From: a phage
Sequence record: PZ583743.1
DNA: 64,000 nucleotides
Direction: 5' to 3' (one strand)
Positions 42,876 to 46,104 of the stretch are shown here, in pieces. The number at the start of each line of letters is the position of its first letter. The first letter of the stretch is position 1. Position numbers and translations under genes: made by a program. The notes beneath the pieces are model-generated. The model was not told the DNA's origin, did not search any database, and was given only the letters and a program-made list of their open reading frames with translations.

Positions 42876-43210
42876 TCACAAGATGTAGATGAACAACTAG
42901 AATCACAAGAACTTCCACATGAATCGCCCGTCCACACATGAACAGGAACATTAGTATCATATGAATCAGAACTAGACTGTGTATTCTGCGTATTAGATGA
43001 TGTAGGTGTTGACCAACGCCAAGGATTTTTATAATATTCCTGGGCTTCTTCATAAGTCATAGTAACTGCTTCTACTGTTCCATCTCCCATATAAACATAT
43101 TCAACTACAGTTAAAGGAAGGTAGTCATTTGAAATAGGAACTACACCTTCTCCGGGAGTTGTAGAGAAAAAATCCGTAAAGAAACTTTTAAACCAATTAA
43201 AGATAAACAT
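42872..43210 (-). CDS. Hypothetical protein with Ser/Cys-rich C-terminal tail
   Basis: ORF track 42872..43255; likely start at 43210 coupled to upstream stop; tail [18 protein letters not shown]. Confidence 0.45.
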
Positions 43211-43422
43211 TACAAAAAGCCTCTTTGAAATTCGACTCTTTGAAATCCACCCCAATCAGTGTATCGCATTTCAGCATTGAACTCGACTGAACCATCTGCA
43301 TGCATCATGAATGAATGCGTGACGATATCACAATCCCAGCTTTTCATACCCCATTTATCAGAGATAGCTTTATCAAGAACCTTCTGGAGGTCTTCATTTG
43401 GTTTAATCCAGCGATTTAACAT
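43210..43422 (-). CDS. Hypothetical protein
   Basis: 70-aa ORF with early promoter 43449..43478. Confidence 0.5.
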   Translation of the reverse strand: MLNRWIKPNEDLQKVLDKAISDKWGMKSWDCDIVTHSFMMHADGSVEFNAEMRYTDWGGFQRVEFQRGFL

Positions 43423-43448
43423 AGTGCTCTCCTCTATAAGATAATTTT

Positions 43449-43478
43449 ATTATACCATACTCATTTTGGAAAGTAAAC
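43449..43478 (-). promoter_or_regulatory. T4-type early promoter
   Basis: -35 GTTTAC at 43473..43478, 18 nt, -10 TATAAT at 43449..43454. Confidence 0.55.
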
Positions 43479-43518
43479 CGGTAAAATGAAAAAAGGACTC
43501 CCGAAGGAGTCCTTGAAT

Positions 43519-43764
43519 TTATTCACCAGTTACTTTCCACAAATCTTCGTTTGCAGTAATCCATTCAGTACGTTGATTTTCTTCATATACTGTAGAATAT
43601 GCTGCTTTTTCTGAAGGGAATATCTGATAATGAGCGCCAGAAATTTTGTGAACGTCAGAATAAAGAGGGAAAGCTACAGAAATTTCCTTTCCTTCAATTT
43701 TCTTATTTCCATCTAATTTTTGCTCAAATGTTTTAATATTAACATAACCGCGAGTACTAGCCAT
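43519..43764 (-). CDS. soc: Small outer capsid protein Soc
   Basis: 81 aa (T4 Soc 80 aa); TATAAATA late promoter 30 nt upstream. Confidence 0.9.
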   Translation of the reverse strand: MASTRGYVNIKTFEQKLDGNKKIEGKEISVAFPLYSDVHKISGAHYQIFPSEKAAYSTVYEENQRTEWITANEDLWKVTGE

Positions 43765-43779
43765 GTAATTCTCCTTTAT

Positions 43780-43989
43780 TTAAATTACATGACTATTTAT
43801 AATAAATTCTTGCGGAACGTTAAAATACCCAATTTTAGTTAATATAACAACATCACCGTTAATAATTACCGGAGAATAATCGGCTGGAGCATTAAACTTC
43901 CAATGAGCTCTAATATTATATCCATCAGAACCAAATGCTCAACTAGCCGGTCTCCCGGCTTTTTGCCATGCATAAAAATCAAATTTCAT
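43780..43989 (-). pseudogene. ORF interrupted by a single in-frame TGA (16 codons, TGA, 52 codons); candidate pseudogene or readthrough gene
   Basis: ATG overlaps upstream stop; MKFDFYAWQKAGRPAS, TGA, AFGSDGYNIRAHWKFNAPADYSPVIINGDVVILTKIGYFNVPQEFIINSHVI; no start codon after the TGA. Confidence 0.4.
43794..43801 (-). promoter_or_regulatory. Late promoter TATAAATA for soc
   Basis: Exact TATAAATA on minus strand 30 nt upstream of soc ATG, inside the 3' end of the interrupted ORF. Confidence 0.7.
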
Positions 43990-44186
43990 TTTGAATGCTC
44001 TATAATTAATTTTAAGGCTTCTTCATGCACCTTACCTAATTGTATATGTCCAGTTTTAATTGTGTAAGCTTTGTGGAGCTGATTAGATAGGAGCTCGTAT
44101 GTGAGCTCCTTGTCATAATTTTTAAATAGCTGGTCAATACGTTTCTTGTGGGCTTTCTTAAGTTGACGTTTATTTAAACGAGCCAT
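43986..44186 (-). CDS. Hypothetical basic protein
   Basis: 66-aa ORF coupled to gene 56 stop. Confidence 0.5.
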   Translation of the reverse strand: MARLNKRQLKKAHKKRIDQLFKNYDKELTYELLSNQLHKAYTIKTGHIQLGKVHEEALKLIIEHSK

Positions 44187-44704
44187 TAATAACCTCGGTC
44201 TTGACGAGCGAAGTTTTCAGCATTTTTCAGATAATAAAGTTTAAAGATTTCTTCAGCCGTAAGACCGAGACCTTGGAACATGTTCAGAACGAAATGAAGA
44301 ATATCAATCATTTCGAATTTAATTTCCAACTGGTCTTGTGGAGACAAATCAGTAATCAGAGTTTCACGTCGTTCACCATGTTGAGCTTTCCAAGGCTTCC
44401 ATACAGCAGATGCATCTTTTTCACCATTGCTCATACCACCAAGAGAAGTCAATAGTTCGCGGAATTCATCATCAATATAATCTTTCTGATTACGCAGCCA
44501 ATCAACAACTTCACCCGCAGTAGCCAAATCATCAGGATGACGGTTATATTCAGGTTTATCTTTAGCTAAACGAACCTGTAGAGATTTCTGCATATCAAGC
44601 ATAACCTGCAGCGGGTCTTTTTCATCACCGAGAATATCCCAGTATTCATTTTGAGCTTTATCAGCGCCTTCGATCAGTTGACTACATTCGTTAAAGTAAG
44701 CCAT
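44186..44704 (-). CDS. 56: dCTPase/dUTPase gp56 (MazG-like)
   Basis: ORF track 44186..44719; start at 44704 (MAYFNECSQLIEG...) gives 172 aa vs T4 gp56 171 aa. Confidence 0.8.
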   Translation of the reverse strand: MAYFNECSQLIEGADKAQNEYWDILGDEKDPLQVMLDMQKSLQVRLAKDKPEYNRHPDDLATAGEVVDWLRNQKDYIDDEFRELLTSLGGMSNGEKDASAVWKPWKAQHGERRETLITDLSPQDQLEIKFEMIDILHFVLNMFQGLGLTAEEIFKLYYLKNAENFARQDRGY

Positions 44705-44764
44705 TATTTTTCCTTTCAATTCATTAATAAGTTAAATAATTATATCATTTGAGTATGTAAGCAA

Positions 44765-46104
<1,340 letters not shown>

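Follow-up and report, generated by a model that had tools for sequence, protein, structure and literature searches.

Does the frame lying directly upstream of soc in this phage DNA, which is open except for a single in-frame TGA, represent a gene recently lost by a nonsense mutation, or a gene which is still expressed by reading through the UGA codon? Both possibilities had been left standing in the initial annotation. The window, i.e. the complete stretch of 64,000 nucleotides analysed here, comes from a T4-like phage (Tequatrovirus), and the order of genes on its minus strand around the locus is dam (44765-45544), gene 56 for the dCTPase, soc.2, the interrupted frame, and soc. The relevant features are the following.

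44186..44719, minus strand: gene 56, coding for the dCTPase and leading the 56-soc.2-soc.1 unit (ORF list, annotations of relatives)
43986..44186, minus strand: soc.2, 66 aa, the upstream partner, whose start overlaps the stop of gene 56 (TAATG)
43780..43989, minus strand: frame assigned to soc.1 (DUF7422), 69 codons plus TAA, with a stop at codon 17 (translation, Pfam, intact orthologues)
43942..43989, minus strand: residual 16-codon ORF, MKFDFYAWQKAGRPAS, whose ATG overlaps the stop of soc.2 (ATGA)
43939..43941, minus strand: codon 17 as a premature opal stop, TGA (compared with PP01 and Shfl2)
43780..43938, minus strand: orphaned 52 codons plus TAA, nucleotide-identical to intact PP01 (alignment)
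43866..43982, minus strand: 38-codon ORF in the +1 frame relative to soc.1 (ORF list; annotated in phages with the TGA allele)
43794..43801, minus strand: T4-type late promoter TATAAATA for soc, within the 3' end of soc.1 (sequence, T2 annotation)
43519..43764, minus strand: soc, small outer capsid protein, 81 aa, intact (Pfam Soc PF16855, 8.2e-54)

The frame opens with the ATG at 43989-43987, passes through 16 sense codons to the TGA at 43941-43939, and continues over 52 sense codons to the TAA at 43782-43780, the minus-strand translation of 43780-43989 reading MKFDFYAWQKAGRPAS, stop, AFGSDGYNIRAHWKFNAPADYSPVIINGDVVILTKIGYFNVPQEFIINSHVI, stop. Its ATG overlaps the TGA stop of soc.2 within an ATGA (43989-43986), which indicates translational coupling, and with the TAATG overlap taken into account, 56, soc.2, and soc.1 make up a single unit with coupled translation. 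Beyond the TGA, the soc.1 frame contains no ATG, GTG, or TTG. The layout described initially, with an ATGA-coupled ATG, 16 codons, a TGA, and 52 further codons devoid of stops and starts, agrees with the translation throughout. The associated claim that such a stop-free run is unlikely by chance stands only in part: the run is real, but its improbability is weaker than implied, because a probability of about 0.013 for 52 stop-free codons at the local composition translates into chance runs of the order of 100 over the six frames of 64 kb. The chance argument therefore appears weak if taken alone, and it is rather homology which identifies the frame as a real one.

As judged from this homology and from the gene order, the interrupted frame is soc.1, an accessory gene of T2-type Tequatroviruses coding for a 69-aa protein. 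The Pfam query was the protein of PP01, to which the window frame becomes identical once codon 17 is read as Arg; it matches PF24197 (DUF7422) with residues 1-69 on profile positions 1-69 (E 2.9e-46, 155.9 bits at a cut-off of 27 bits), and the frame with Arg-17 restored matches PHROG 5773 (4e-41). An intact soc.1 is annotated at the equivalent position in PP01, Shfl2, T2, KIT03, and RB18, and the order 56/soc.2, soc.1, soc is shared by the window with PP01, Shfl2, T2, KIT03, AV110, Shf125875, and RB18; soc.1 of T2 and its relatives likewise lies between 56/soc.2 and soc and is 69 codons long. A tblastn search detected soc.1 in 239 phage records, ranging over Tequatrovirus, Mosigvirus, and Karamvirus and from 100% down to about 59% identity, and an ORF spanning this region is thus conserved in related phages, contrary to what would have refuted the initial annotation. 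In a database of 5.8 billion proteins soc.1 makes up only 11 clusters, a protein-seeded scan of IMG/VR returned three loci only, and the pairwise dN/dS values among orthologues lie between 0.12 and 0.52, with about 0.2-0.4 as the figure for intact ones. By these values soc.1 is a real gene under constraint, but its family is a narrow one. An AlphaFold model of Soc.1, which was based on a six-sequence alignment, is of low confidence (mean pLDDT 62.6, pTM 0.42).

The lesion is a single C>T transition, located at position 43941 of the window, which turns codon 17 from CGA (Arg) into TGA. In the alignment with PP01 and Shfl2 this codon is the sole in-frame difference between the window and PP01, the 68 sense codons being identical without exception (68/68), and compared with T2-type soc.1 only a 16-aa peptide is expected. 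Comparison with related phages, which had been proposed as a check on the nature of the TGA, does reveal a sense codon in the orthologues: codon 17 is CGA in PP01, Shfl2, T2, KIT03, LF73P3, RB18, L006, and L025, with LF73P3 as the nearest intact relative carrying the C at 43941, while outside Tequatrovirus the codon is AAA (Lys) in Mosigvirus and CCT (Pro) in Karamvirus. The occurrence of Arg, Lys, or Pro at this position across three genera indicates that a sense codon was the ancestral state, the codon from which the TGA arose being CGA, and the complete lack of differences from intact PP01 over the 52 downstream codons indicates that the mutation is recent.

The frame in the window is very probably an opal nonsense allele of a non-essential gene, of recent origin and circulating in nature, and thus a case of ordinary gene loss. 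The pseudogene alternative contained in the initial annotation is favoured by the CGA codon of the orthologues, whereas programmed readthrough is disfavoured by the stop being a derived minority allele. Ribosomes finishing soc.2 would be expected to restart at the overlapping AUG and to translate 16 codons before being released by RF2 at the UGA, which would leave the peptide MKFDFYAWQKAGRPAS as the only product and soc.1 functionally lost. A few percent of these ribosomes, at the most, might misread the UGA with tRNA-Trp and yield a full-length R17W protein, and such a residual product would reflect the ordinary leakiness of any opal mutation rather than a programmed device. Classical opal mutants of T4 and E. 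coli offer the closest likeness, in that an early sense codon has likewise become UGA and a few percent of readthrough by tRNA-Trp is expected in K-12; the soc.1 TGA differs from them in being a natural polymorphism of environmental isolates instead of a laboratory mutant.

The loss of soc.1 should be tolerated because the gene is non-essential. T4 carries segF in place of soc.2 and soc.1, as is also stated in a passage of PMC5931544 citing Belle et al. 2002, and the absence of both genes from T4 shows that a T-even phage can do without either. The segF cassette of T4 represents an alternative occupant of the slot between gene 56 and soc; there, both genes have been replaced by a homing endonuclease gene, whereas soc.2 is intact in the window and soc.1 has suffered a point mutation. 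The variability of the locus with regard to soc.1/soc.2 and segF was already known, and the case as such carries little biological weight beyond the routine turnover of accessory genes in T-even phages. Other, independent lesions of soc.1 are found as well: a CGA allele is disrupted by a 1-nt insertion in L020, a frameshift occurs at about codon 29 in L022, and the N-terminus is disrupted in the Mosigvirus Shf125875 (NC_025437.1, 389-613), where it reads NET*FLCM... and the annotated soc.1 CDS begins only at a Met inside the frame, corresponding to residue 8. The T2 record AF374619.1 from 2001 contains a soc.1 of 40 aa (775-897) with a 1-nt deletion relative to modern T2 (69 aa), which is probably an old sequencing error; the same error has likely also seeded a UniRef entry. 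In one 167-kb ENA scaffold, L021 (scaffold_29 of ERZ16268256), the TGA is followed downstream by two further changes, a private 1-nt insertion situated about 23 codons beyond it and outside any homopolymer, and a Phe>Ser replacement, while gene 56, soc.2, soc, and mrh.2 have normal lengths there. These lesions look like decay after inactivation, seen in one metagenome-assembled scaffold only. In the GenBank isolates with the TGA allele the downstream frame is fully open and has acquired no new changes, at a divergence too low to inform on selection either way.

The expression of soc should be unaffected by the lesion, since soc relies on a late promoter and a ribosome-binding site of its own, both situated 3' of the lesion. 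The motif TATAAATA corresponds to the T4 late-promoter consensus, and a distance of 30 nt separates it from the soc ATG at 43764. Its counterpart in the T2 record AF374619 carries the label 'late promoter', and the soc late promoter is thereby confirmed at the 3' end of soc.1, where it had been placed initially; soc is further preceded by its own GGAG ribosome-binding site (Shine-Dalgarno). For gene 56, the same T2 record shows an upstream middle promoter box together with a -10 signal. As a separate observation, the A-run in the spacer between soc.1 and soc shows a one-base deletion at position 43778, shortly before the soc Shine-Dalgarno sequence (TAAATAAAGGAG vs TAAATAAAAGGAG), which is present in the window, HP3, and LF73P3, but not in YUEEL01, PP01, Shfl2, and L021. 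The extra base in this spacer run accounts for a length of 752 rather than 751 nt of the region in some relatives and lies outside soc.1.

The TGA allele is not confined to the window. The exact 61-mer containing it is found in 19 GenBank records, which cover 17 named phages, TOPO13 perhaps being YUEEL01 deposited a second time, and the exact 61-mer with CGA is found in 74 records representing intact Tequatrovirus alleles. HP3 and its derivatives add four records, in which the TGA is preceded by an altered codon 16 (AGT>TTT, S16F), and the ENA scaffold L021 also contains it, the share of the TGA allele being about 13% of the records holding this soc.1 segment. Over 751 nt around the site the window is 100% identical to nine GenBank records from eight phages, namely ES19, ES21, ZN18, ECO07P4, ECO07P5, a51, 107, and DCP2, and for a51 the identity extends over the whole 1351 nt that were compared. 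The sources of the allele span laboratories, hosts, and countries, as exemplified by 107 (USA), a51 and YUEEL01 (Korea), and ZN18 (on Yersinia). A search of IMG/VR and the JGI metagenomes with an allele-neutral DNA pattern recovered three loci, which are ZN18 and two intact ones, and no new TGA allele.

At least three haplotypes with the TGA exist in GenBank, represented by the window, YUEEL01, and HP3, plus the one of L021. The window and YUEEL01 have a distinctive haplotype in gene 56/soc.2 in common, as well as the T at 43941, and 3' of the stop YUEEL01 carries the Shfl2-like variants D36, V42, and N66, all of which are present in intact alleles. This pattern fits a single origin of the TGA followed by recombination further downstream. 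In HP3, codons 16 and 17 read TTT TGA, which lies two steps from AGT TGA, as in the window, and likewise two from ATT CGA, as in the intact RB18 type; a second independent CGA>TGA event is possible in that lineage. As a point against plain loss, the allele has persisted and recombined, being neither purged nor reverted; its persistence on several haplotypes would also be in keeping with a non-essential gene evolving neutrally. Incidentally, HP3 (NC_041919.1, 168 kb) is listed as 'Rosemountvirus' in the RefSeq taxonomy, yet it is 99.3% identical to the window across the T4-type locus, and its placement is probably a taxonomic mis-assignment.

Among the alternatives to a plain nonsense allele, expression of soc.1 by UGA readthrough has to be considered first, either because a low level of the Trp-containing protein suffices or because the allele has been selected for reducing the dosage. 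In E. coli, UGA leaks more than any other stop codon, by about 1-4% in K-12. Readthrough in strain BW25113 amounts to about 2% at 37 °C, as against 4% at 25 °C (PMC10570021), older work gives 1e-2 to 1e-3 (PMC4989110), and this passive leak could give traces of a Trp-17 protein. Some functional product might result, as residue 17 is variable (R, K, or P), the allele occurs in 23 records and several haplotypes with an intact downstream frame in all GenBank isolates, and the AGT>TTT change of the codon just 5' of the stop in HP3 could in principle alter the termination context. However, the TGA is derived and in the minority, every other orthologue examined having a sense codon, and the stop is not conserved among the relatives which keep the downstream frame, where 23 records with TGA stand against at least 74 with CGA. 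In addition, the TGA is joined to a downstream frameshift in L021, and the TGA genomes are too little diverged for an open frame to signal selection. The absence of soc.1 from T4 and its frameshifts in other assemblies likewise argue against a function in need of preservation.

No tRNA genes are present in the window, none of the 11 tRNAs in the cluster of phage 107, the one TGA genome whose tRNA cluster was scanned, has a UCA anticodon (0/11), and an Rfam scan of 43400-44300 returned no family at threshold, the 19 bits reached by IBV_D-RNA (vs 35) being attributable to chance. Neither a suppressor tRNA in phage 107 nor an Rfam recoding element thus supports readthrough. The 3' context of the stop is UGA G, unchanged relative to the CGA G of the intact alleles, and no stimulatory structure was found 3' of the TGA. 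The only clear hairpin is located 5' of the stop, at 43946-43959 on the minus strand and covering soc.1 codons 11-15 (GCCGG-GAGA-CCGGC), with a perfect 5-bp stem and a GNRA-type loop. It is also present in intact alleles; the stem is kept in Karamvirus (GCCGG-ACGT/TCGT-CCGGC) and broken in KIT03, and it is dictated mostly by the invariant AGRPA motif.

A case of programmed readthrough in a coliphage is that of Qbeta, where host tRNA-Trp reads the UGA of the coat gene to yield the A1 extension, which is essential. The soc.1 locus resembles it in having an in-frame UGA followed by an open frame, but in Qbeta the UGA is conserved and naturally terminates a complete, functional protein, whereas that of soc.1 is a derived minority allele at codon 17 of a gene which in its orthologues continues through this position with a sense codon. 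On balance, biologically relevant expression of soc.1 by readthrough is considered unlikely. A related proposal holds that the opal allele acts as a selected 'dimmer', with passive or context-tuned readthrough (cf. the altered codon 16 of HP3) leaving a few percent of Trp-17 Soc.1, or that the loss of soc.1 is advantageous in some hosts. Either would explain the spread of the allele onto several haplotypes and several continents, and the proposal is regarded as highly unlikely. The naturally occurring TGA/CGA pair provides near-isogenic material for testing the role of DUF7422.

The annotation of several TGA-allele phages implies a further alternative, according to which the real gene would be the +1-frame ORF of 35-38 codons and the soc.1 frame would be irrelevant. 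This ORF is labelled 'putative transmembrane protein' or 'hypothetical protein' in 107, a51, and CHD2BS1, is annotated also in the CHD/G3 series, and stays open over about 40 codons in nine of nine orthologues examined, including Karamvirus at 59% identity. Yet where soc.1 is intact annotators choose soc.1, the +1 frame is conserved no more than frame 0 forces, neither its TTG nor its ATG is preceded by a Shine-Dalgarno sequence, and it belongs to no protein family, the only database proteins in this frame being frameshift chimeras with soc.1. The curated Pfam match and the dN/dS values below 1 all belong to frame 0. Its openness probably follows from the constraint acting on frame 0, and from these comparisons the ORF is judged to be an annotation artefact; that it represents the actual gene is hardly credible. 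Other TGA-allele records (YUEEL01, HP3 RefSeq) leave a gap at soc.1, and the gene should rather be flagged as a pseudogene in all genomes with this allele.

In RefSeq/PHROGs, soc.1 appears as 'head protein' and soc.2 as 'virion structural protein' (NC_054930, NC_015457, NC_054931). These terms look as if they had been propagated from the 'soc.' prefix rather than derived from evidence, given that soc.1 and soc.2 belong to the middle-promoter unit of gene 56, upstream of the soc late promoter.

A sequencing or assembly error in this genome, with the gene being truly intact, would need just the single-base difference from intact alleles, and old records of the locus do contain probable errors such as the soc.1 frameshift in T2 AF374619, but the identical T recurs in 19 exact-61-mer records, the four HP3 records, and the ENA scaffold, which come from different groups and platforms, and the lesion is a substitution rather than a homopolymer indel, so the chance of a mere read error is negligible, and with the TGA reproduced in 23 GenBank records (19 + 4) this reading may be regarded as effectively refuted. 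Recoding of the UGA, either as selenocysteine or by a phage opal suppressor derived from tRNA-Arg(UCU), is equally far from plausible: the tRNA-Arg(UCU) of T4-type phages is one mutation away from UCA and a 101-nt region at the site folds somewhat better than shuffled sequence (z = -2.7), but the tRNA-Arg of TGA-phage 107 has the wild-type UCU anticodon (tct) and none of its 11 tRNAs reads UGA, no SECIS or other Rfam family reaches the threshold, the homologues carry Arg, Lys, or Pro at codon 17, and the local hairpin, which intact alleles possess too, is situated before the stop. Slippage at the 'GCT TTT TGA' of HP3 was considered separately and rejected, as neither a +1 nor a -1 shift re-enters the soc.1 frame.

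Two further observations concern the surroundings of the locus. Within gene 56, the gene reportedly targeted by T4 SegF, the window and YUEEL01 differ from PP01/Shfl2 at about 90 of 290 positions between 44258 and 44548, while downstream from about 44257 they are almost identical to them, which constitutes a sharp mosaic boundary and looks like a recombination junction. On the other side of soc, the mrh.2-like ORF of 70 aa (43210-43422, minus strand) is present as a divergent allele in the window and YUEEL01, with several indels and a length of 213 nt vs 207 nt in PP01/Shfl2, and may be seen as a further sign of mosaicism around soc.
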